Positions 50,647 through 64,000 of a stretch of 64,000 bases of DNA are shown piece by piece (the first letter of the stretch is position 1; every line of letters begins with the position of its first letter). The notes beneath the pieces were generated by a model that saw only the letters and a list, made by a program, of their open reading frames with translations, ran no database searches and was not told where the DNA came from. The stretch comes from an uncultured bacterium (GTDB lineage Bacteria; Joyebacterota; Joyebacteria; Joyebacterales; Joyebacteraceae), in assembly GCA_964516845.1 (NCBI GenBank), contig CAZEXP010000005.1:1030-65029 (forward strand), written 5' to 3'. Position numbers and translations under genes: made by a program.

Positions 50647-51660
50647 GTGGGTTCGAGCAGGATCGAGATGGGCAGACTGAACGAGCTTCTCGGTGGTTTC
50701 GGCGACCGACGCGTTGCGATCCTGGGCGACGCGATGCTGGATCGCTACATATGGGGTGAGGTCAACAGGATCTCGCCCGAGGCTCCGGTCCCGGTCGTCG
50801 AGGTGCGCGACGAGACCATCCGGTTCGGCGGCGCGGCGAATGTGGCGGAGAACGTCGCAGCGCTGGGCGCGACAGCGGATGTCATCGGTGTGGTCGGGGA
50901 CGATGATCACGGCAGAGACCTCATGGGCCGTCTGGGGGCGCGCGGGGTCGGCGTCGGGCACCTTCTGACGGTCGACGGTCGACCGACGACCACTAAGACC
51001 CGGATCATCGCGCATAACCAGCAGATCGTGCGCGCCGACCGGGAGCATGCTCACGCGCTGGCCGAGGCGGCGGAGGACTCGCTCATCAAGTCGCTTCGCG
51101 AGGTCGTGCCGGTGTCGGACGTGCTCATCATCTCGGATTACGGGAAGGGAGTCGTCAGCGAGCGGACGCTCGAGGCGGCGCTCGGTGCTGCGCGAGACGG
51201 GGAGACGAAGGTCTGCGTCGACCCGAAGGAATCACACTTCTCCCGATACCTTGGAGTGACCGCGATCACGCCGAACCTCAAGGAGGCGGCGGGCGCCGTG
51301 GGATACGCGATGAGCAGCGATGACGATCTGCTCCGCGGGGGCTGGGAACTGCGCGAGCGACTGGACGCGGAGTGTGTCATCGTCACGCGCGGTGAACATG
51401 GCATGTCGCTGTTCATGCGGGGCGGCGAGTACGCGTACCTGCCGACGGTGGCTCGAGAGGTCTTCGATGTCACCGGCGCCGGCGATACGGTCGTCAGCGT
51501 TCTCGGCGTGGCGCTCGCGGCCGGTGCCTCGATGGTTGAGGCCGCGATGATCGCGAACCACGCTGCCGGTATCGTCATCCGGGAGATCGGCACGGCGTCG
51601 ATCACCGTTGACGAGATCCGTTGTTCATTCGAAGAACTCGAGGAGGTCGCCGGTGGGTAG
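50647..51660 (+). CDS. rfaE1: D-glycero-beta-D-manno-heptose-7-phosphate kinase
   Basis: RISPEAPVPV, GGAANVA, SDYGKG, VDPK and DVTGAGDTV motifs. Confidence 0.95.
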   Translation: MGSSRIEMGRLNELLGGFGDRRVAILGDAMLDRYIWGEVNRISPEAPVPVVEVRDETIRFGGAANVAENVAALGATADVIGVVGDDDHGRDLMGRLGARGVGVGHLLTVDGRPTTTKTRIIAHNQQIVRADREHAHALAEAAEDSLIKSLREVVPVSDVLIISDYGKGVVSERTLEAALGAARDGETKVCVDPKESHFSRYLGVTAITPNLKEAAGAVGYAMSSDDDLLRGGWELRERLDAECVIVTRGEHGMSLFMRGGEYAYLPTVAREVFDVTGAGDTVVSVLGVALAAGASMVEAAMIANHAAGIVIREIGTASITVDEIRCSFEELEEVAGG

Positions 51661-52144
51661 AGTGGTGTCGCGGGAAGAACTGTCGGCGGCGTGCGAGTCG
51701 GCGCGGCAGGCCGGCCGAACGGTCGTCTTCTCGAACGGGTGCTTCGACATCCTCCACCATGGGCACGTTGACTACCTCGCCAGGGCGAAGGCGCTTGGAG
51801 ATATTCTCGTCGTCGGTGTCAACACGGACGACTCGGTCCGCCGCCTCAAGGGACCAAGGCGCCCTATCGTCCCTGAGGACGACAGGGCGGCCGTCGTAGC
51901 CGCGCTCGGGGTCGTCGACTACGTGTGTCTTTTTCCTGAAGATACTCCCTACGAACTCATCGTAAGCATCACCCCTCACGTTCTCGTCAAGGGTGCCGGT
52001 TACTCCCGGGACACCATCGTTGGCGCGGACGTGGTCGAGGAAGCAGGTGGGCGGGTCGTGGCGATGGAGGCGCTTGAGGGCCACTCAACCCGCGGGATCG
52101 TCGCCCGTATTCACTCGCTCGGGGAGGATCGTCCGGAGGACTGA
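51653..52144 (+). CDS. rfaE2: D-glycero-beta-D-manno-heptose-1-phosphate adenylyltransferase
   Basis: FSNGCFDILHHGHVDYL, VGVNTDDSVRRLKG and VLVKG motifs. Confidence 0.95.
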   Translation: MGRVVSREELSAACESARQAGRTVVFSNGCFDILHHGHVDYLARAKALGDILVVGVNTDDSVRRLKGPRRPIVPEDDRAAVVAALGVVDYVCLFPEDTPYELIVSITPHVLVKGAGYSRDTIVGADVVEEAGGRVVAMEALEGHSTRGIVARIHSLGEDRPED

Positions 52145-52206: not shown

Positions 52207-52235
52207 TGGACTCAGTTGAGGCGTTGGCGTATACT
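52207..52235 (+). promoter_or_regulatory. Candidate sigma70 promoter for the arcE-suc-kor-ndk-bfu operon
   Basis: TGGACT, 17-nt spacer, TATACT; would leave a ~220-nt leader. Confidence 0.55.
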
Positions 52236-52463: not shown

Positions 52464-53774
52464 ATGGAGAGGCGACGAGTCATCATCATGGGCGCCGCTG
52501 GAAGAGACTTTCACAATTTCAATCTGGTCTATCGCGGTCACAAGGAATTCGAGGTCGTCGCGTTCACGGCCACGCAGATCCCGGACATCGACGGTCGAGC
52601 GTATCCGACCGTGCTAGCCGGTGAGCTCTACCCGAACGGGATCCCTATCCTCGCCGAAGAGGACCTTCCGAAGCTCATCAAGGAGCACAACGTCGACGAC
52701 GTCGTGTTCGCCTACAGCGACGTGTCTCACGAGTACGTGATGCACAAGGCATCGCTCGTCAACGCGTGCGGCGCGAACTTCCTGCTCCTGGGCGCGCACG
52801 AGACGATGATCAAGTCGAAGAAGCCCGTCATATCGATCTGCGCAACGCGCACGGGGTGCGGCAAGAGCCAGACGACGCGCCGCATTGCCGAGATCCTGCT
52901 CGAGGCGGGCAAGAAGGTCGTGGCCATCCGGCATCCGATGCCGTACGGCGACCTCAGCAAGCAGATCTGGCAGCGTTTCGCCAAGTACGACGACATGCTC
53001 AAGCACAAGTGCACGATCGAGGAGATGGAGGAGTACGAGCCGCACATCGACCGCGGCAACGTCGTCTACGCCGGTGTGGACTACGGCAGGATCCTCGAGG
53101 AGGCCGAGAAGGAGGCCGACGTCATTCTTTGGGACGGCGGCAACAACGACGCATCGTTCTACGCGTCGGACCTCTACATCGTCGTCGCCGACCCGCACCG
53201 TGCTGCGCACGGCCTGACGTACTACCCCGGCGAGCAGAACCTCCGGATGGCCGACGTGGTCATCATCAACAAGGAGGACTCTGCGACGCAGGCTCAGATC
53301 GATGAGATGGTCGACGTGATCAAGAGTCTCAACGACTCCGCCGTCATCATTCATGCCGATTCGCCCGTCACCTTCGAGGAGAACGTCGACCTCAAGGGCA
53401 AGCGCGTCCTCGTCGTCGAGGACGGGCCGACGCTCACGCACGGCGGCATGAAGATCGGCGCGGGCACTGTGGCCGCGGAGCGCGCCGGAGCCATTCTGGT
53501 CGACGCGCGCGAGCACGCCACCGGCAAGATCCGCGAGATGTACGAGAAGTACCCGCACATCGGCACGCTGCTGCCGGCCGCCGGGTACTCGGATGAGCAG
53601 ATCGCCGATCTGGAGAAGACGATCAACGCCGTGGACTGCGACTACGTCGTCGTCGGCACGCCGATCGATCTCCGCAAGGTCGTCAACATCAAGAGGCCGA
53701 GCGTTCGTGTCCGTTACGAACTCGGGGTGAAGGGCAGCCCGACGCTCGTGGATGTGCTCAAGGACTTCGTGTAG
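52464..53774 (+). CDS. COG2403 P-loop protein, likely arginine synthetase (ArcE-type); often annotated cyclic-2,3-diphosphoglycerate synthase
   Basis: VIIMGAAGRDFHNFN, VVAFTATQIP, RTGCGKSQTTR, RHPMPYG, CTIEEMEEYEPH, WDGGNND and EDGPTLTHG motifs. Confidence 0.75.
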   Translation: MERRRVIIMGAAGRDFHNFNLVYRGHKEFEVVAFTATQIPDIDGRAYPTVLAGELYPNGIPILAEEDLPKLIKEHNVDDVVFAYSDVSHEYVMHKASLVNACGANFLLLGAHETMIKSKKPVISICATRTGCGKSQTTRRIAEILLEAGKKVVAIRHPMPYGDLSKQIWQRFAKYDDMLKHKCTIEEMEEYEPHIDRGNVVYAGVDYGRILEEAEKEADVILWDGGNNDASFYASDLYIVVADPHRAAHGLTYYPGEQNLRMADVVIINKEDSATQAQIDEMVDVIKSLNDSAVIIHADSPVTFEENVDLKGKRVLVVEDGPTLTHGGMKIGAGTVAAERAGAILVDAREHATGKIREMYEKYPHIGTLLPAAGYSDEQIADLEKTINAVDCDYVVVGTPIDLRKVVNIKRPSVRVRYELGVKGSPTLVDVLKDFV

Positions 53775-53801: not shown

Positions 53802-54937
<1,136 letters not shown>

Positions 54938-54941
<4 letters not shown>

Positions 54942-55810
54942 GCATCTTCATCGATGAGAGAACGCGCGTCTGCGTCCAGGGGATGACCGGTCGGGACGGC
55001 TCGTTCCACACGGGAGCGATGATCGAGTACGGTACGCATGTCGTGGCGGGCGTCACGCCCGGGAAGGGCGGACAGAACCTCGGCGGCGTTCCGGTATTCA
55101 ATACGGTCCGCGAGGCGGTCGTCGAGACCGGCGCCAACGCCACGATCATCTTCGTCCCCGCGAGATTCGCGGCCGACGCGGCGCTCGAGGCCGCGGAGTC
55201 GGGTGTCGAACTCATCGTATTCATCACGGAGGGCGTTCCTACGCTCGACGCGATGCGGCTCTACCAGCGGACGAAGGAACTCGGGGTGAGGATGATCGGT
55301 CCCAACTGCCCCGGTCTCATCAGTCCGGGGAAGGCGAAGCTCGGGATCATGCCGGGCGCGATCCATACGCGCGGGCAGATAGGCGTTGTCTCCCGGAGCG
55401 GAACGCTGACGTATGAGGTCGTCGACAGCCTCAGGCGCGGTGGCGTCGGGCAGTCGACCGTCATCGGTATCGGGGGAGACCCGATCATCGGGACGACGTT
55501 CATCGACACGCTCGAGGCATTCGAGAAGGACGAGGGAACTACGGCCGTCGTCCTCATCGGTGAGATAGGCGGAACCGATGAGGAGCAGGCGGCGGAGTTC
55601 ATCAGGGAACACATGACGAAGCCGGTCGTCGGTTTCATCGCCGGGCGGACGGCGCCCCCGGGACGCAGGATGGGTCACGCGGGAGCCATCATCGCGGGCG
55701 GCAGAGGGACGGCCGAGGAGAAGATCAAGGCGCTATCGGACGCCGGCGTACCGGTCGCGGACCGGCCGAGCGAGATCCCCGGACTCCTCCGGGCGACGCT
55801 TGGGAGGTAG
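54938..55810 (+). CDS. sucD: Succinyl-CoA synthetase alpha subunit
   Basis: [30 protein letters not shown] and RMGHAGAII (phospho-His) motifs. Confidence 0.97.
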
Positions 55811-55811
55811 C

Positions 55812-56123
55812 ATGGAGAAGAATGCGGCGAAGGCCGCACCGCGGAGAGCCTGGAACTACCCCGCTCGGGATGAGCACCCCGAGAGAGAGGTCTTCGTATA
55901 CGACGCGTGGTGTAAGGGCTGCGGGCTCTGCTACGAGTTCTGTCCGACGGGCGTGTTCACGTCGGACCGCACCGGTCGCCCCGTCGTGTCGAATCCCGAC
56001 AAGTGCATCTCGTGCTATCTCTGCGAGAAGCTCTGTCCCGACATGGCGATCACTGTCTACAAGGAACGCAAGAAGAAGAGCGTCGAGGCACCGAACGGCG
56101 CCGCCGGCGGGGAGGGGTCCTGA
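55812..56123 (+). CDS. 2x[4Fe-4S] ferredoxin-like delta subunit of 2-oxoacid:ferredoxin oxidoreductase
   Basis: WCKGCGLCYEFCP and CISCYLCEKLCPDMAI motifs. Confidence 0.9.
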   Translation: MEKNAAKAAPRRAWNYPARDEHPEREVFVYDAWCKGCGLCYEFCPTGVFTSDRTGRPVVSNPDKCISCYLCEKLCPDMAITVYKERKKKSVEAPNGAAGGEGS

Positions 56124-56124
56124 C

Positions 56125-57276
56125 ATGTCCGCAAACCGGAGCAAGGACGTCAAGGTCCTCCAGGGGAACGAGGCCTGTGCCATTGGAGCGGTCGCGGCCG
56201 GCGTGAACTTCTTCGCGGGCTATCCGATCACACCGTCCTCCGAGGTCGCCGAGTTCATGGCGCGGCATCTCCCGCTGATCGGTGGCAGGTTCATCCAGAT
56301 GGAGGACGAGATCGCCTCGATCGCCGCGATCATCGGCGCGTCGATCGCGGGTTCGCGGTCGATGACGGCGACGAGCGGTCCGGGTTTCTCGCTCATGCAG
56401 GAGAACATCGGTCTCGCCTGTCTCGCGGAGATCCCGTGCGTCATCGTCAACGTGATGCGCGCGGGGCCCTCGACCGGTCTGCCGACGCAGCCGGCGCAGG
56501 CGGACGTCATGCAGGCGCGCTGGGGAACGCACGGCGATCACTCGATCATCGCGCTGGCCCCTTCGACCGTGCTCGAGTGTATCGAGCTGACGGTCCAGTG
56601 CGTCAGTCTCTCGGAGAAGTACCGGACGCCCACTCTGCTGCTGCTCGATGAGGTCATCGGGCACATGCGCGAGAGCGTCACGCTGCCGGCTCCCGGGTCG
56701 TACCACTGCGAGAGCCGCAGAACGCCGGACCCGGACCTGGCCGACTACTGCCCGGCCGCGTGCGAGGGGGACGAGGTAGCGCCGCTGGGGCGCTTCGGCG
56801 GCCCGCACCGCTTCCACGTCACGGGTCTGACGCACGACCCGCACGGGTTCCCGACGATGGTGCCCTCCGAGGTCGATCGGAAGATCCACTGGATCGTCGA
56901 CAAGATCGAGTCGCGCGCCGACGAACTCGCCATGAACGATGAGTTCATGACGGACGACTGCGACGTCCTCCTTTTCGCATACGGATCGACCGCGCGCGTC
57001 GCGAAAGCGTCCGTGCGGGAGCTCCGGGAGCAGGGTGTGAAGGCGGGGCTTCTCAGGGTGAAGACCATCTGGCCGTTCTCGAGCAAGCGACTGGGCGAGC
57101 TCGCCCCGCAGCTTCGGGGCATCGTCGTTCCCGAAATGAACATGGGACAGCTCGTGCTCGAGGTCGAGCGGGCCATCTGTGGCAGGACGCCGGTCAGGCA
57201 TCTCGGTCGCGTCGACGGCAGGCTGTTCACGCCCGATCAGATAACCGACTTTGTCACGGAGGAACTGAGCGCATGA
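56125..57276 (+). CDS. 2-oxoacid:ferredoxin oxidoreductase alpha subunit (KorA-like)
   Basis: GNEA, FAGYPITPSSE, QMEDEIAS, TATSGPGFSLMQE and RAGPSTGLPT motifs; true start is ATG 56125. Confidence 0.95.
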   Translation: MSANRSKDVKVLQGNEACAIGAVAAGVNFFAGYPITPSSEVAEFMARHLPLIGGRFIQMEDEIASIAAIIGASIAGSRSMTATSGPGFSLMQENIGLACLAEIPCVIVNVMRAGPSTGLPTQPAQADVMQARWGTHGDHSIIALAPSTVLECIELTVQCVSLSEKYRTPTLLLLDEVIGHMRESVTLPAPGSYHCESRRTPDPDLADYCPAACEGDEVAPLGRFGGPHRFHVTGLTHDPHGFPTMVPSEVDRKIHWIVDKIESRADELAMNDEFMTDDCDVLLFAYGSTARVAKASVRELREQGVKAGLLRVKTIWPFSSKRLGELAPQLRGIVVPEMNMGQLVLEVERAICGRTPVRHLGRVDGRLFTPDQITDFVTEELSA

Positions 57277-58178
57277 GCCAGGCGATAGAGACAGCGCGGA
57301 CGTATCTCAAGCCGCACAAGAAGCTGCCGACGGTCTGGTGCGGGGGCTGCGGCCTCGGCGTCATCATGAGCAGTTTTCTACGGGTGATCTCGAAGATGGA
57401 GATCCCGAAGAACGACATCGCGACCGTGTCCGGCATCGGGTGCACCGGTCGCATGCCGACCTATGTTGATTCGAACACACTGCACACGACACACGGGCGG
57501 GCGCTCGCGTTCGCGACGGGCGTGAAGCTTGCCAACCCGAAGCTCACCGTTATCACGGTGATGGGAGACGGCGACGCGCTGGCGATCGGCGGCAACCATT
57601 TCATTCATGCGTGCCGTCGCAATATCGATATCACCGCGATCGTCGCGAACAACTGCATCTACGGCATGACCGGGGGGCAGTACTCCCCGACGACGCCGCA
57701 CGGCAAGCGCGGCACGACAGCGCCGTACGGCAACGTGGAGCATGAGTTCGACGCATCAAGGCTGGCTGCCGGCGCGGGCGCATCGTTCGTGGCCCGGACA
57801 TCCGTCTATCACGTCCGTGAGCTTGACAAGCTCATCGAGCAGGCGATCAGGCATCGCGGGTTCTCGGTCGTCGAGGTAATGAGCAACTGCTATACGAGCT
57901 ACGGAAGGCTGAACAACTACAAGTCGCCGGTGGACATGTTCCGGTGGATGAAGAACAGCTCGGTGACGCTCAGGCAGGCCGAGGGGATGTCGCCGGAGGA
58001 ACTCGAGGGCAAGTTCACACGCGGTGTGTTCGTGGAGAATTACATGCCCGAGTTCATCCAGGTGTACGATGAACTCGCGGAGCGGTTGACGAGCGACTCG
58101 GCGAGCGCAGCGGCACATCTGCGGGAGACCGTCGAGCGGTACGAGCGACTGGGAGACCGACTGAAGGCAGTCGGCTAG
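57273..58178 (+). CDS. 2-oxoacid:ferredoxin oxidoreductase beta subunit (TPP-binding)
   Basis: WCGGCG, SGIGC, HGRA and GDGD...NN..YGMTGGQ motifs. Confidence 0.95.
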   Translation: MSQAIETARTYLKPHKKLPTVWCGGCGLGVIMSSFLRVISKMEIPKNDIATVSGIGCTGRMPTYVDSNTLHTTHGRALAFATGVKLANPKLTVITVMGDGDALAIGGNHFIHACRRNIDITAIVANNCIYGMTGGQYSPTTPHGKRGTTAPYGNVEHEFDASRLAAGAGASFVARTSVYHVRELDKLIEQAIRHRGFSVVEVMSNCYTSYGRLNNYKSPVDMFRWMKNSSVTLRQAEGMSPEELEGKFTRGVFVENYMPEFIQVYDELAERLTSDSASAAAHLRETVERYERLGDRLKAVG

Positions 58179-58245: not shown

Positions 58246-58806
58246 GTGACGAAGAGTGGGGGAAGGTTCGAGGTTCGCCTCTCGGGGTCCGGTGGTCAGG
58301 GGCTGATGTTGGCCGGGAAGCTCCTGGCGGAGGCGTCGTCCGTCTACGATGGCAAGAACACGGTGCAGACGCAGAGCTACGGACCGGAGGCTCGCGGCGG
58401 CAAGAGCAAGACCGATGTTGTGATCTCGACCGAGGAGATCGACTACCCGAAAGCGACGAAGGTCGACGTTCTCCTGGCGATGACGCAGGTGGCGGCCGAC
58501 GAGTATGCCGACTCTCTCAAGGACGGCGGACTGATGATCGTCGACTCCTATCTCGTTGAGACGGTCAGTCGCGACGGAGCCATCCATATCCCGTTCACGA
58601 TGCTTGCGGTCGAGCACTGCGGCAGGATGCTGTTCGCGAACGTTGTCGCGCTGGGAGCGATTGTCGAACTGACGGGCGTCGTCGAGTGGGAGAGCCTGTC
58701 GAAGGCGGTCATGGCCCGCGTGCCGGAGGGCACCGAGGAACTCAACCAGAAGGCGCTGGACGTCGGGCGCGAGGCAGCAGTGAAGGCAAGGGAGAAAGCC
58801 AATTGA
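58246..58806 (+). CDS. 2-oxoacid:ferredoxin oxidoreductase gamma subunit
   Basis: SGSGGQG, QSYGPEARGG and NVVALGA motifs. Confidence 0.93.
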   Translation: MTKSGGRFEVRLSGSGGQGLMLAGKLLAEASSVYDGKNTVQTQSYGPEARGGKSKTDVVISTEEIDYPKATKVDVLLAMTQVAADEYADSLKDGGLMIVDSYLVETVSRDGAIHIPFTMLAVEHCGRMLFANVVALGAIVELTGVVEWESLSKAVMARVPEGTEELNQKALDVGREAAVKAREKAN

Positions 58807-59228
58807 CGGACAGAACGTTCCTGATGGTCAAGCCGCGCGCCGTGCGTGAAGGGCTGACAGGTCCGATCCTCGCAGAACTCGAGAAGGGTGGATTTCGCAT
58901 CATCGGACTTGCGTCCCGCGGGCTCACCAGCGACGAGGCGCACATCTTCTATGATGTCCACGTGGGCAAGCCGTTCTTCGACACGCTCCTCGAGTTCGTG
59001 ACCTCCGGCATGACGGTCGGCGTGCTGCTCGAGGCGCCGGATGCGGTGCCGGCGCTCCGCGCGTTCGTCGGCGCGACCGATCCGGAGAAGGCGGAGCCCG
59101 GGACGATCAGAGCGACATACGGCAGGAGCCTTACGCAGAACGCGGTGCACGCTTCGGACTCGCCCGAGCGTGTCACACACGAGTCTGCGATCCACTTCGG
59201 CGATTGCCCGAGGACGATAGTAGCGTAG
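58803..59228 (+). CDS. ndk: Nucleoside diphosphate kinase
   Basis: TTG start overlaps the previous TGA; HVGKPFF, GAT...PGTIRA and NAVHASDS motifs. Confidence 0.92.
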   Translation: MTDRTFLMVKPRAVREGLTGPILAELEKGGFRIIGLASRGLTSDEAHIFYDVHVGKPFFDTLLEFVTSGMTVGVLLEAPDAVPALRAFVGATDPEKAEPGTIRATYGRSLTQNAVHASDSPERVTHESAIHFGDCPRTIVA

Positions 59229-59257
59229 CTCCCCCCGGGGGAGAGCGCGGAGGGACA

Positions 59258-59749
59258 ATGGAGAACACGGTGGTTCAGGACGGGGCGATGGCCGGATTCC
59301 TCGAGGCGGCGGACGAGGTCGCCGCGGAGTATGTGGGCCGACGCGGGAGCGTCATCCCCGTACTTCAGAAGGTTCAGGAGCGCATCGGATACCTGCCGCC
59401 CGAGGTCATGAAGCGCATCGGTGAGCGGCTCGGTGTCCCGCCGGCTCAGATCTTCGGTGTCGCCAGCTTCTACGCGCAGTTTCGGATGGAACCCGTCGGC
59501 CGGTACATCGTCAAGGTCTGCCACGGGACCGCGTGCCACGTACAGGGAGCGGGCACCATCACGGACGCGATCTGTGATGAACTCGGTGTGGCCGATGGCG
59601 CGACGACCGAGGACGGGAAGTTCACGGTGGAATCGGTCGCCTGCCTCGGATGCTGCAGTCTCGCGCCTGTTATCATGGTCGAGGGCAAGACCTACGGCCG
59701 GCTGACGCCGGACGAGGCGCGCAAGATCGTCAGGGAGTACGGCGACTGA
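59258..59749 (+). CDS. NuoE/HydC-like [2Fe-2S] subunit (Bfu-family C subunit)
   Basis: IPVLQKVQERIGYLP, VASFYAQF, VCHGTACH and VACLGCCSLAPV motifs. Confidence 0.93.
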   Translation: MENTVVQDGAMAGFLEAADEVAAEYVGRRGSVIPVLQKVQERIGYLPPEVMKRIGERLGVPPAQIFGVASFYAQFRMEPVGRYIVKVCHGTACHVQGAGTITDAICDELGVADGATTEDGKFTVESVACLGCCSLAPVIMVEGKTYGRLTPDEARKIVREYGD

Positions 59750-59789
59750 GAAGCGTTGCACGCCCCGGGAGTGCTCCCGGGGGCGCGGC

Positions 59790-61613
59790 GTGAAGCGACA
59801 CATACGATTCACCCGGAGAGAGATGATGGCGAAGACAGGCGCGACCGTTGAGGTCACCGTCGGGCTCTCGAGCTGCGGCATTGCCGCGGGGGCGGCCGAC
59901 GTCTTCAGCGCGTTCCAGCGGGAGTTCGAGGAGAAGGGTGTGGACGCCCGCCTCCGGCGCACCGGATGTGTCGGCATGTGCTACCGGGAGCCGATCGTCG
60001 ACATCGTGACCCGTGGGGGCGCGAAGTACACGTACGGAGGGATCACCGCGGACCAGGTGGGACGGGTCGTGGAGGAGCACGTCGTCGGCGGGAAGCCGAT
60101 CGACGAGTGGCTGGTGCGCGCGGATGACAGAGAGCTTCCCGACGAGTCGTACTACTCGCAGCAGGTCCGCCTCGTTCTTCGCAACGCCGGCGTCATCGAT
60201 CCGGAGTCGATCGACGAGTACATCGAGGTCGGCGGCTACGCGGCGCTCACGAAGGTCATCAAGGAGATGTCACCGGACGGCGTCATTGAGGAGATCAAGG
60301 CTTCCGGCCTCCGCGGCCGCGGAGGCGCGGGCTTCCCGACCGGGATCAAGTGGGGTCTCGCCAAGAAGGCGCAGGGCGACGAGAAGTACGTCATCGTCAA
60401 CGCCGACGAAGGCGATCCGGGCGCTTTCATGGACCGGAGCATACTCGAGGGTGATCCGCACGCGGTCCTCGAGGGACTCGTGATCGCGGCGTACACCATC
60501 GGCGCGCAGGAAGGCTACTTCTACGTCCGCGCCGAGTACCCGCTCGCGATCAAGCGTCTGAGGATCGCCATCGAGGACGCGACCGAACGCGGCTATGTCG
60601 GCGAGAACATCCTCGACTCCGGCTTCTCCTTCAACGTGCACATCAAGGAGGGCGCCGGGGCATTCGTCTGCGGCGAGGAGACGGCGCTCATCGCGTCCAT
60701 CGAGGGGCAGCGCGGCATGCCGCGGCTCCGTCCCCCGTATCCGGCGGTCAAGGGTCTCTGGGGCAAGCCGACGAACAACAACAACGTCGAGACCTACGCG
60801 AACATCCCGTGGATCATCGCCAACGGTGCGGCCGCCTACGCCGCGTACGGCACCGAGACGAGCAAGGGAACCAAGGTCTTCGCGCTCGCGGGGAAGATCA
60901 CGCGCGGCGGACTCGTCGAGGTCCCGATGGGGCTGACGATCCGGCAGGTCATCGAAGAGGTCGGCGGGGGCGTCCCCGAGGGGCGTTCGTTCAAGGCCGT
61001 TCAGCTCGGCGGTCCGTCGGGCGGATGCGTGCCGACCGAGTTCATGGACATTCCTATCGACTACGAGTCGATCACGAAGACGGGCGCCATCATGGGGTCG
61101 GGCGGCATGGTCGTCATGGACGACTCGACGTGCATGGTCGATATCGCCCGGTTCTTCCTGAACTTCACGCAGGACGAGAGCTGCGGGAAGTGCACATTCT
61201 GTCGCGTCGGGACGAAGCGGATGCTCGAGATCCTCGAACGCATCACATCGGGCGAGGGGCGCGAGGGCGACATCGAGCTCCTCGTCGAACTCGGAGAGAA
61301 GATCATCAGCTCGTCGCTCTGCGGTCTCGGACAGTCGGCCCCGAATCCGGTCCTGACGACCATCAAGTACTTCCGGGATGAGTACGAGGCACACATCAAC
61401 GAGAAGCGATGCCCCGCGCTGTCGTGCAAGGCGCTGATCACCTACGAGATCGATCCCGACAAATGCATCGGGTGCACCGTTTGCGCGAAGAAGTGTCCGG
61501 TCGGCGCGATCACCGGCGAGCGCAAGAAGACACACACGATCGACCACGACCTCTGCACCAAGTGCGACGCCTGCAGACAGGCATGCAAGTTCGACGCCGT
61601 GACGGTCCGCTAG
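59790..61613 (+). CDS. NuoF/HydB-like FMN/NADH subunit (Bfu-family B subunit)
   Basis: N-terminal thioredoxin-like Fe-S domain, GLRGRGGAGFP, ADEGDPGAFMDR, GAFVCGEET, SCGKCTFCR and a C-terminal 2x[4Fe-4S] domain; the start may be 59823. Confidence 0.94.
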   Translation: MKRHIRFTRREMMAKTGATVEVTVGLSSCGIAAGAADVFSAFQREFEEKGVDARLRRTGCVGMCYREPIVDIVTRGGAKYTYGGITADQVGRVVEEHVVGGKPIDEWLVRADDRELPDESYYSQQVRLVLRNAGVIDPESIDEYIEVGGYAALTKVIKEMSPDGVIEEIKASGLRGRGGAGFPTGIKWGLAKKAQGDEKYVIVNADEGDPGAFMDRSILEGDPHAVLEGLVIAAYTIGAQEGYFYVRAEYPLAIKRLRIAIEDATERGYVGENILDSGFSFNVHIKEGAGAFVCGEETALIASIEGQRGMPRLRPPYPAVKGLWGKPTNNNNVETYANIPWIIANGAAAYAAYGTETSKGTKVFALAGKITRGGLVEVPMGLTIRQVIEEVGGGVPEGRSFKAVQLGGPSGGCVPTEFMDIPIDYESITKTGAIMGSGGMVVMDDSTCMVDIARFFLNFTQDESCGKCTFCRVGTKRMLEILERITSGEGREGDIELLVELGEKIISSSLCGLGQSAPNPVLTTIKYFRDEYEAHINEKRCPALSCKALITYEIDPDKCIGCTVCAKKCPVGAITGERKKTHTIDHDLCTKCDACRQACKFDAVTVR

Positions 61614-61622
61614 CTTCGTCGA

Positions 61623-61645
61623 CGGGGTCCGTGCCACGGACCCCG
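61623..61645 (+). other. Intra-operon GC hairpin
   Basis: CGGGGTCCGT-gcc-ACGGACCCCG. Confidence 0.6.
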
Positions 61646-61674
61646 CGGGAACCGGCTTCCAGGAGAGTTCAAAC

Positions 61675-64000
61675 GTGGCACTCGTAAACATGACACTGAA
61701 CGGCACCGATGTGCAGGTCGAGTCGGGGATGACCATCCTCGAGGCGGCGAGCGCGAACGGCATCCGGATCCCGACGCTCTGCCACGACGAGCAACTCGAG
61801 CCGTTTGCATCCTGCTGGATCTGCGCCGTCAAGCTCGAGGGCATGAAACGGTACGTCCCGTCCTGCGGCACGAAGGTTGCCGAGGGGATGAAGGTCTGGA
61901 CGGACACCGAGGACGTTCGCGCCGTCAGACGGATGGCGCTCGAGCTCCTGCTCTCGAATCACCGCGGCGATTGCGTTGCCCCGTGCAAGGAGGCGTGCCC
62001 AGCGAGCGTTGACGTCCAGGGGTACATCGCTCTCATCGCTCAGGGGAGATACCGCGACGCGACGAAGCTGGTCAAGCAGGTCAATCCGTTCCCGCTCTCC
62101 ATCGGCCGCGTCTGCACGCGCCCGTGCGAGGGGGAGTGCCGGCGGAACGCGGTCGACGGACCGGTCTGCATTGATTACCTGAAGCGGTTCGCCGCCGACT
62201 GGGACATCTCACACCCGGATCCCTACTCGCCGCCGGTCGCACCTCCCAGCGGTCACAAGGTCGCCGCCGTAGGCGCCGGTCCAGCGAGCCTGACCGCCGC
62301 GTACTACCTGGCGCAGGCCGGACACGCCGTGACGATCTTCGAGGCGCTTCCCGATCCGGGCGGCATGCTCCGCTACGGCATTCCAGAGTACCGGCTGCCG
62401 AAGCGCACGCTCGACGACGAGATCGGTCTGATCACGGGGCTCGGTGTCGACGTGAAGTACGGGCAAAGGCTGGGATGCGATTTCACGCTCAGTGACCTGT
62501 TCGATCAGGGCTACGAGGCGGTCTTCCTGGGGCTCGGCGCGATGGCGAGCCGCAAGATGCGCTGTCCGGGCGAGGAGCTTGACGGCGTCTGGGCGGGCAC
62601 GGACTTCCTCGGGAAGATGGGCCTCAACGATCCGCCCGCGGTCGGCAGGCACGTCGCCATCATCGGCGGCGGCAACACCGCGGTCGATGCCGCACGGACG
62701 AGCCTGAGGCTCGGCGCCGAGAAGGTGACCATCGTCTACCGGCGCTCCCGCAAGGAGATGCCGGCGTGGGATGTCGAGGTCGACGCGGCGGAGGAGGAGG
62801 GGGTCGAGATGCACTTCCTCGCCGCGCCGACGAAGATCGAAGGCGACGGCAGGTGTGAGCGTCTCGAATTCATCCGCATGGAGCTCGGTGAGCCCGACGA
62901 GAGCGGCCGTCGTCGTCCGGTCCCCGTCGAGGGTTCCGAGTCGGTCATAGATGTCGACAACGTCATCGCGGCCATCGGCCAGCTTCCGAATCTCGACTGC
63001 ATCCAGAAGACGGCGGAGAAGGATCCCGACTCGCTCGAGGCGAAGCTCGGATTGACGCACTGGGGCACGATCATCGCCGACGAGAGGTCCGGGCTGACCG
63101 CGGTTCCCGGCGTCTTCGCCGGAGGCGATGTGGTCAACGGCGCCGCCACGGCCATCGAGGCCATCGCGGCCGGTGGACGCGCGGCCGCGGCCATCATTCG
63201 CATGTTCCGCGGCGAGGCGGTCGACGCCGTCCCGCCGTACTTCAACATTCAGGAGGAACGCTGGGACAGTTTCCCCGCGGAGGAACTCGCGGATGTCGTC
63301 CGCCAGGAGCGCCAGGAGATGCCGGAGCTTCCGGTCGCCGAGCGCATCAAGACCCTGGATGAGGTCGAACTGGGGCTCACCGAGGAGCAGGCGCTCGAAG
63401 AGACGAAGCGCTGTCTCGAGTGCGGTTGTGCCGAGGGGTTCAGCTGTCAGCTTCGGGATTACGCGGCCGAGTACGGTGTCACACTTGGGCGTTTCAGCGG
63501 CGAGGTCGTTTCGGACCCGCCGGACGAGCGCCATCCGTTCATCCGCATCGAGCCGGAGAAGTGCATCATGTGCGGCCGGTGTATCCGCATCTGTCAGGAT
63601 GTTCAGGGCGCATCGGCGCTCGGGTTCTACCGGCGCGGTTTCGTCGCTCAGATGAAGCCCGCGCTGTGCGAGCCGCTGGCGCAGACCGACTGTGAGTCCT
63701 GCGGCCAGTGTGTCGAGTCGTGCCCGACCGGCGCGCTCACTGCGAAGCCCGTGGCCGTCAAGCCGGGTCCGTGGGATCTCGTGTCGACGGTGTCAACATG
63801 CGGCTTCTGCGGCACGGGGTGCTCTGTCGATCTCTGCACGGTGGCGGGAGACCTTGTTTCCATCGCTCCCGCTTCGGGAGTCGGTGTGAACGAGGGCAAC
63901 CTCTGTGTCCGCGGACGGTTCGGATTCCGTGGGGCGCTCGGCGAGAGGATCACGGCGCCGCGCGTCAAGGGGAGCGAGTCATCGTGGGATCGTGCGCTCG
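61675..64000 (+). CDS. Partial NfnA/SfrB-like subunit: NuoG-type [2Fe-2S] + GltD-type FAD/NADPH domain + ferredoxin + start of a molybdopterin-oxidoreductase-like domain
   Basis: Absent from the ORF track because it has no stop in the window. I translated it from GTG 61675 after AGGAGA: IPTLCH...CWIC, APCKEACP, GRVCTRPCEGECRR, VGAGPAS, IGGGNTAVDAAR, CIMCGRCIRIC, CESCGQCVESCP, CGFCGTGC, LCVRGRFG. Confidence 0.93.
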   Translation, partial: MALVNMTLNGTDVQVESGMTILEAASANGIRIPTLCHDEQLEPFASCWICAVKLEGMKRYVPSCGTKVAEGMKVWTDTEDVRAVRRMALELLLSNHRGDCVAPCKEACPASVDVQGYIALIAQGRYRDATKLVKQVNPFPLSIGRVCTRPCEGECRRNAVDGPVCIDYLKRFAADWDISHPDPYSPPVAPPSGHKVAAVGAGPASLTAAYYLAQAGHAVTIFEALPDPGGMLRYGIPEYRLPKRTLDDEIGLITGLGVDVKYGQRLGCDFTLSDLFDQGYEAVFLGLGAMASRKMRCPGEELDGVWAGTDFLGKMGLNDPPAVGRHVAIIGGGNTAVDAARTSLRLGAEKVTIVYRRSRKEMPAWDVEVDAAEEEGVEMHFLAAPTKIEGDGRCERLEFIRMELGEPDESGRRRPVPVEGSESVIDVDNVIAAIGQLPNLDCIQKTAEKDPDSLEAKLGLTHWGTIIADERSGLTAVPGVFAGGDVVNGAATAIEAIAAGGRAAAAIIRMFRGEAVDAVPPYFNIQEERWDSFPAEELADVVRQERQEMPELPVAERIKTLDEVELGLTEEQALEETKRCLECGCAEGFSCQLRDYAAEYGVTLGRFSGEVVSDPPDERHPFIRIEPEKCIMCGRCIRICQDVQGASALGFYRRGFVAQMKPALCEPLAQTDCESCGQCVESCPTGALTAKPVAVKPGPWDLVSTVSTCGFCGTGCSVDLCTVAGDLVSIAPASGVGVNEGNLCVRGRFGFRGALGERITAPRVKGSESSWDRAL

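Follow-up and report, generated by a model that had tools for sequence, protein, structure and literature searches.

What is the function of a gene that is conserved across an uncultured bacterial phylum and that databases carry under names as different as GTPase and cyclic 2,3-diphosphoglycerate synthase? The gene lies on the plus strand at 52464-53774 of the window, the 64,000-nucleotide stretch of DNA analysed here. Close relatives of its product, P0001, are called 'predicted GTPase' (JGI), 'GTPase [Candidatus Eisenbacteria bacterium]' and, in several NCBI entries, 'cyclic 2,3-diphosphoglycerate synthase' (cDPGS). A sequence-only reading of the locus had proposed instead an ArcE-type arginine synthetase, with a ligase acting on some other substrate as the fallback.

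To our knowledge, the archaeal protein TK2200 is the sole characterised member of the ArcE family, and none has been characterised from bacteria. TK2200 is the arginine synthetase of Thermococcus kodakarensis and catalyzes the reversible reaction L-arginine + ADP + Pi <-> L-citrulline + NH3 + ATP; acting with ArcB and ArcC, it allows the formation of two ATP per arginine (Michimori, Yokooji and Atomi, 2024, PMC11032458). T. kodakarensis lacks carbamoyl phosphate synthetase (CPS), and it was shown genetically that ArcE and ArcB, but not carbamate kinase (CK), are needed for its pyrimidine synthesis (Michimori et al., 2026, PMC13260591).

The reading frame at 52464-53774 is a genuine gene. Its stop-free translation runs to 436 amino acids, and a ribosome-binding site, GGAGG, lies 5 nt upstream of the ATG. 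Both motifs reported earlier are in the translation, GAAGRDFHNFN at residues 10-20 and the P-loop RTGCGKS at residues 129-135. The phylum set consisted of 31 MAGs (Eisenbacteria-like) in eight genera, 20 of them of high quality; the genome that contains the window is itself a MAG of 2.62 Mb, 94.5% complete. The gene is conserved at 71-95% identity in 26 of the 31 genomes, including 19 of the 20 high-quality ones, in one copy per genome, and DNA of the locus has been recovered in aquatic and marine-sediment metagenomes. More than 8000 relatives of P0001 were found, with 3604 cluster representatives at E <= 0.001. A search of P0001 against NCBIfam returned no family model, and Pfam gave only a marginal cobW match. 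The assignment to COG2403 agrees with the JGI label on relatives, 'predicted GTPase', which is the COG2403 label. The predicted structure (mean pLDDT 93.3, pTM 0.91) has the P-loop NTPase fold, its ATP-Mg core resembles that of LpxK, and it is a remote relative of cDPGS.

The features of the locus are as follows, all on the plus strand.

50647-51660, plus: RfaE domain-I kinase (family match).
51608-52144, plus: cytidylyltransferase-like gene of the RfaE/HldE domain II type (family match).
52207-52235, plus: sigma-70-like promoter match TGGACT-17-TATACT within the 320-nt gap before arcE, as frequent as in shuffled sequence (1 match vs 1.0) and so a lead, not a finding.
52464-53774, plus: arcE-like gene, 436 aa, P-loop enzyme of the ArcE/COG2403 family.
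53802-54941, plus: sucC, ADP-forming succinate-CoA ligase beta subunit (NF001913, 519 bits, over cut-off).
54938-55810, plus: sucD, succinate-CoA ligase alpha subunit (NF004230, 440 bits); its start overlaps the sucC stop.
55800-56123, plus: korD-like 2x[4Fe-4S] ferredoxin subunit, 107 aa (Fer4, 49 bits, two stretches).
56125-57276, plus: korA, 2-oxoacid:ferredoxin oxidoreductase alpha subunit (NF006412, 532 bits, aligned from residue 108); the start is the likely one.
57273-58178, plus: korB, beta (TPP-binding) subunit (family match).
58246-58806, plus: korG, gamma subunit (family match).
58812-59228, plus: ndk, nucleoside diphosphate kinase (PF00334, 139 bits, residues 43-172 of the ORF 58686-59228); the start is probably near 58812.
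59204-59749, plus: NuoE-like thioredoxin-like [2Fe-2S] protein (PF01257, 177 bits).
59790-61613, plus: NuoF-like NADH-binding FMN/Fe-S subunit with a C-terminal 2x[4Fe-4S] domain.
61675-63999, plus: fusion protein of more than 775 aa, extending beyond the window, with [2Fe-2S], GltD-like NAD(P)H flavoprotein and NuoG/molybdopterin-oxidoreductase-type Fe-S parts.

The arcE-like gene had been described as leading an operon that includes sucCD and kor, and the gene order agrees with this. A gap of 320 nt separates it from the cytidylyltransferase-like gene on the same strand, whereas only 27 nt lie between its stop and the start of sucC. This junction contains no terminator-like site, sucC has its own AGGAGG site, and sucD, korD, korA, korB and korG follow. 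A search of the 5' leader of arcE against Rfam found no match. The arcE gene is probably co-transcribed with the genes for SucCD, KorDABG, Ndk and the NuoEF-type module. The presence of a korD-like ferredoxin gene makes the oxidoreductase one of the four-subunit KorDABG type. The NuoE/NuoF-like pair and the downstream fusion may form an electron-bifurcating, NADH/ferredoxin-linked complex.

Several reading frames in the region called for revision. The ORF 55822-57276 would encode a KorA of 484 aa, of which the first ~100-105 residues, rich in Arg, Ser and Pro and matching no family, were rejected; the sequence points to the Met at codon 102 as the likely start. The korD-like gene sits in another frame beneath this spurious extension (55822-56125) and is overlooked if the long ORF is accepted. 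A minus-strand ORF of 160 aa at 51602-52084 was also rejected, as it matches no family and the plus strand there carries the cytidylyltransferase-like gene; although it appears conserved in tblastn, this ORF is an antisense artefact of the G+C-rich DNA. The cytidylyltransferase-like gene, for its part, is split here from the domain-I kinase. Another feature of the region is the position of ndk between korG and the NuoE-like/NuoF-like pair, followed by the fusion gene; the whole stretch (58686-63999) is syntenic in the 8 genera.

Gene order from 49487 to the last gene of the window, at least 14 kb, is kept in 14 loci representing all eight genera, and the arcE-like gene ranks among the best conserved genes of this syntenic block. 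The association of arcE with sucCD and kor is thus found in every genus of the phylum, and it is specific to this lineage. Synteny is only weak evidence of a functional link between them, because unrelated upstream genes are equally syntenic, and the association may be plain synteny within one family.

Family membership was assessed with the best 80 species-representative homologs, bacterial and archaeal, of at least 600 matches listed. P0001 is 46-65% identical to these 80, among which there is no Thermococcus. As proxies for TK2200, the homologs of Hyperthermus butylicus (48% identity over 429 aa) and Pyrodictium occultum (45%) both align with P0001 free of gaps, and PMC11032458 names both genera among those with arcE. 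Among the same best 80 of at least 600 listed, 15 loci have genes for CK and/or ornithine transcarbamoylase (OTC) no more than 8 kb from the homolog, mostly adjacent to it, while sucCD is near none and kor genes are near two. Linkage of arcE to arcB/arcC is described as holding 'in some genomes' (PMC11032458), and is a supportive criterion for ArcE, not a required one.

Further evidence comes from gene fusions. There were 31 long proteins with an ArcE domain. Three of them also carry an OTC and are 59-63% identical to P0001. Carbamate kinase is the partner in about 12, among them P0126 with 337 bits on TIGR00746, and a class-III aminotransferase in about 10; one of the latter, P0424, reaches 480 bits on an ornithine aminotransferase (OAT) model, above cut-off. 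In these fusions (P0411-P0437), OTC, carbamate kinase or ornithine aminotransferase may precede or follow the ArcE domain. The partners all belong to the route from arginine to ornithine to glutamate, and they provide independent, family-wide support for the function that was assigned in 2024 on the basis of one archaeal enzyme. No mention of such fusions was seen in the available text of the ArcE literature (PMC11032458, PMC13260591). Two side observations concern the wider family. The metagenomic homolog P0233 (806 aa) contains an intein with a LAGLIDADG homing-endonuclease domain just after the region aligned with the P-loop. Two homologs are eukaryotic, P0151 and P0418, from Creolimax fragrantissima (456 aa) and Paratrimastix pyriformis (a 1007-aa fusion, 52% identical to P0001), in agreement with the statement in PMC11032458 that a few eukaryotes carry arcE.

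Quick maximum-likelihood trees (123 and 138 rows; midpoint root, no outgroup and no Thermococcus sequence) recover the phylum as a monophyletic clade (SH-aLRT 100) on a short stem. Its neighbours, in a weakly resolved group (82-83), include members from Brocadia (CK adjacent), Ignavibacteriaceae (CK and OTC) and Caldisericia (OTC adjacent), and an OTC fusion. The midpoint root does not separate off the members linked to CK or OTC, which are dispersed to either side of it. Outside the phylum, 123 sequences have 97 columns conserved at >= 90%; the clade retains 96 of these, P348A being the exception, so there is no sign of an altered active site.

The gene profile of the phylum bears directly on function. 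OTC, over cut-off, is present in 28 of the 31 genomes (contig C15 in the genome of the window), carbamate kinase in 29 (contig C17) and PyrB in 27 (contig C32). ArgG, over cut-off, and CarB, the large subunit of CPS, are absent from all 31. Weak partial matches to the arginine deiminase (ADI) family PF02274 occur in four genomes, none of them the genome of the window or a member of its genus. ArgH, and ArgJ and ArgC of the acetylated route to ornithine, were sought in the genome of the window alone, and none was found. Incompleteness of the MAGs does not explain this profile, because the pattern holds across the 20 high-quality genomes. The presence of CK in 29 of 31 genomes without a full ADI fits the pattern in which ArcE homologs stand in for ADI. 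A genome search for argF/arcB, arcC, arcA and argGH had been proposed as a check on the assignment; its outcome is the one expected for ArcE.

The OTC and carbamate kinase genes do not adjoin arcE, as had been pointed out earlier; both are encoded on other contigs. The neighbours of argF (OTC) are xerC, a Big_5 protein gene, dapF and dapA, which are uninformative on arginine. The carbamate kinase gene is found in a cluster resembling those of purine degradation (C17:13604-17900; L012 7602-11864), together with genes for adenine deaminase, an XdhB-like FAD subunit and two tandem carbamoyltransferase paralogs. The paralogs score below every NCBIfam cut-off, and their nearest models are N-acetylornithine carbamoyltransferase and YgeW. 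Given this setting, the kinase may serve another pathway.

The observations made here concern the protein's family, its fold, its conservation, the order of the genes and the gene profile across the phylum, whereas the reaction, its direction, the co-transcription and the role in carbamoyl phosphate supply are inferred. The gene at 52464-53774 probably encodes an ArcE-type arginine synthetase, most likely acting in arginine degradation, with the unlinked OTC leading to PyrB or CK. Arginine, imported or derived from peptides, would be converted by ArcE to citrulline and NH3 with formation of ATP, and the unlinked OTC (C15) would convert citrulline to ornithine and carbamoyl phosphate. The latter would serve PyrB in pyrimidine synthesis or yield a second ATP through carbamate kinase (C17). 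The two glutamate dehydrogenases of the genome could feed 2-oxoglutarate to KorDABG, after which SucCD would form nucleoside triphosphate, Ndk would keep the nucleotides in balance, and ferredoxin or NADH could be re-oxidised by the NuoEF-type module. The operon partners are consistent with a catabolic, ATP-yielding role of ArcE. With CPS, ArgG and a full ADI lacking in the phylum, and ArgH, ArgJ and ArgC in the genome of the window, imported arginine would therefore supply energy and most of the carbamoyl phosphate, as genetics has shown for T. kodakarensis. In this lineage it is hard to see a role for OTC unless ArcE ties it to arginine.

Searches for an arginine/ornithine antiporter of the ArcD type and for ornithine cyclodeaminase found neither, and the genome of the window has no ArgR. 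Ornithine aminotransferase was not found either, the sole class-III aminotransferase being of the L-lysine 6-transaminase family. Arginine uptake and the further use of ornithine are therefore gaps in the proposed scheme, and count against it. The lysine 6-transaminase-family enzyme is the only candidate for the conversion of ornithine to glutamate.

The same enzyme might work in the opposite direction, producing arginine from citrulline, NH3 and ATP in place of ArgG and ArgH, with citrulline supplied by OTC and carbamoyl phosphate by reversal of CK. The missing ArgG and ArgH agree with this, as does the reversibility of the reaction, and PMC11032458 proposes such a biosynthetic role for some organisms without ArgGH. 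Those organisms, however, possess CPS and ornithine synthesis, whereas here CarB is absent throughout and the genome of the window yielded neither ArgJ nor ArgC. The equilibrium lies on the side of citrulline and ATP (PMC11032458), and in T. kodakarensis CK is unable to supply enough carbamoyl phosphate (PMC13260591). The operon partners, moreover, are enzymes of catabolism and ATP formation. We regard a biosynthetic direction as unlikely.

Another possibility is a change of substrate. The protein could be a neofunctionalised ArcE paralog acting on another amide, amidine or guanidino compound tied to 2-oxoglutarate/succinyl-CoA metabolism, in a sucCD-kor context unique to this lineage. That OTC and CK are unlinked to the arcE-like gene is a point against the arginine-degrading role and in favour of this one. 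However, there is a single copy per genome, the clade is short-stemmed and nested among arc-linked members, and the conserved columns are kept with one exception. Furthermore, the OTC of the phylum would be left, without ArcE, with neither a source of citrulline nor a use for it. These data do not uphold the fallback offered by the sequence-only reading, namely a ligase variant that acts on some other substrate, and we consider it very improbable.

With respect to cDPGS, a phmmer search of P0001 against all PDB chains found only 9SXB (E 2e-5, 27 bits, ~110 residues). The best Foldseek matches of the model were the Methanothermus cDPGS structures 8ORU and 8ORK (E 2.7e-17, 16% identity, TM 0.41-0.46), followed by LpxK of Aquifex aeolicus (4EHY, 13% identity, TM 0.48/0.65). 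PMC11032458 describes ArcE homologs as only weakly similar to cDPGS, and the TK2200 model as likewise related to LpxK. That P0001 is a cyclic 2,3-diphosphoglycerate synthetase, as NCBI labels several close relatives, draws on these names and a common fold but has almost no likelihood, given a sequence match over a partial stretch only, a fold alignment at low identity, and a host that is a mesophilic sediment or aquatic bacterium and not a hyperthermophilic methanogen. The earlier preference for ArcE over cDPGS is sustained by this distance and by 45-65% identity to the family of arcE homologs. It is sustained as well by the family's adjacencies and fusions to CK, OTC and OAT, by the position of P0001 in the tree among such members, and by a genome profile with OTC, CK and PyrB and without a full ADI, ArgG or CPS.

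An arginine-degrading ArcE has wider implications. The annotation of a core gene of an uncultured phylum would be corrected, where databases still say 'GTPase' or 'cDPG synthase'. The operon setting suggests joint regulation of ArcE with fermentative ATP production. More speculatively, and with rather less than even confidence, the whole phylum (31 genomes, 8 genera) could depend on imported arginine, by way of ArcE and OTC, for the carbamoyl phosphate of pyrimidine synthesis, with arcE as the first gene of a conserved arcE-sucCD-korDABG-ndk and NuoEF-type operon. If true, the arrangement in Thermococcales would have its first counterpart in bacteria, and this would be the first ArcE co-regulated with ATP formation from 2-oxoglutarate to succinate and not with arcB/arcC. 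The finding of 2026, that carbamoyl phosphate is drawn from arginine through ArcE and OTC where CPS is lacking (PMC13260591), would be extended to bacteria. What sets this lineage apart is the position of arcE in its operon and the lack of CPS and ArgG across the phylum, the ArcE family itself being already known. Arginine auxotrophy and arginine-dependent pyrimidine synthesis are predicted for these sediment bacteria, which may be helpful in culturing them.

Among known systems, LpxK (tetraacyldisaccharide 4'-kinase, 4EHY) has in common with P0001 the P-loop core with its ATP-Mg pocket, but it acts on another substrate, is membrane-associated and is remote in sequence. The cDPGS of Methanothermus fervidus (8ORU, 8ORK, 9SXB) likewise has the P-loop architecture and is the source of the relatives' database name, yet sequence identity is low and its biology differs, the product being a thermoprotectant solute of hyperthermophilic methanogens. 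The ADI pathway (ArcA-ArcB-ArcC) is the common route from arginine through citrulline to ornithine and carbamoyl phosphate, and on to ATP, and it uses the same OTC and CK. Its first step is hydrolytic, whereas that of ArcE forms ATP and is catalyzed by an unrelated P-loop enzyme; against an ADI pathway in this phylum are the four weak partial matches, none in the genus of the window, and the missing ArcD antiporter. The closest likeness is to T. kodakarensis. Its ArcE probably belongs to the same family as P0001, as judged through the 45-48% identical, gap-free homologs of the listed genera, and TK2200 and P0001 have the same relation to the LpxK-like P-loop fold. The gene profiles also agree, with OTC, CK and PyrB present and ADI, ArgG, CPS and, for the genome of the window, ArgH missing. 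Unlike T. kodakarensis, the host phylum here is bacterial and outside Thermococcales, and CK lies within a cluster of purine-catabolism type. The arcE gene itself is away from arcB/arcC and heads a sucCD-korDABG-ndk-nuoEF-like operon.
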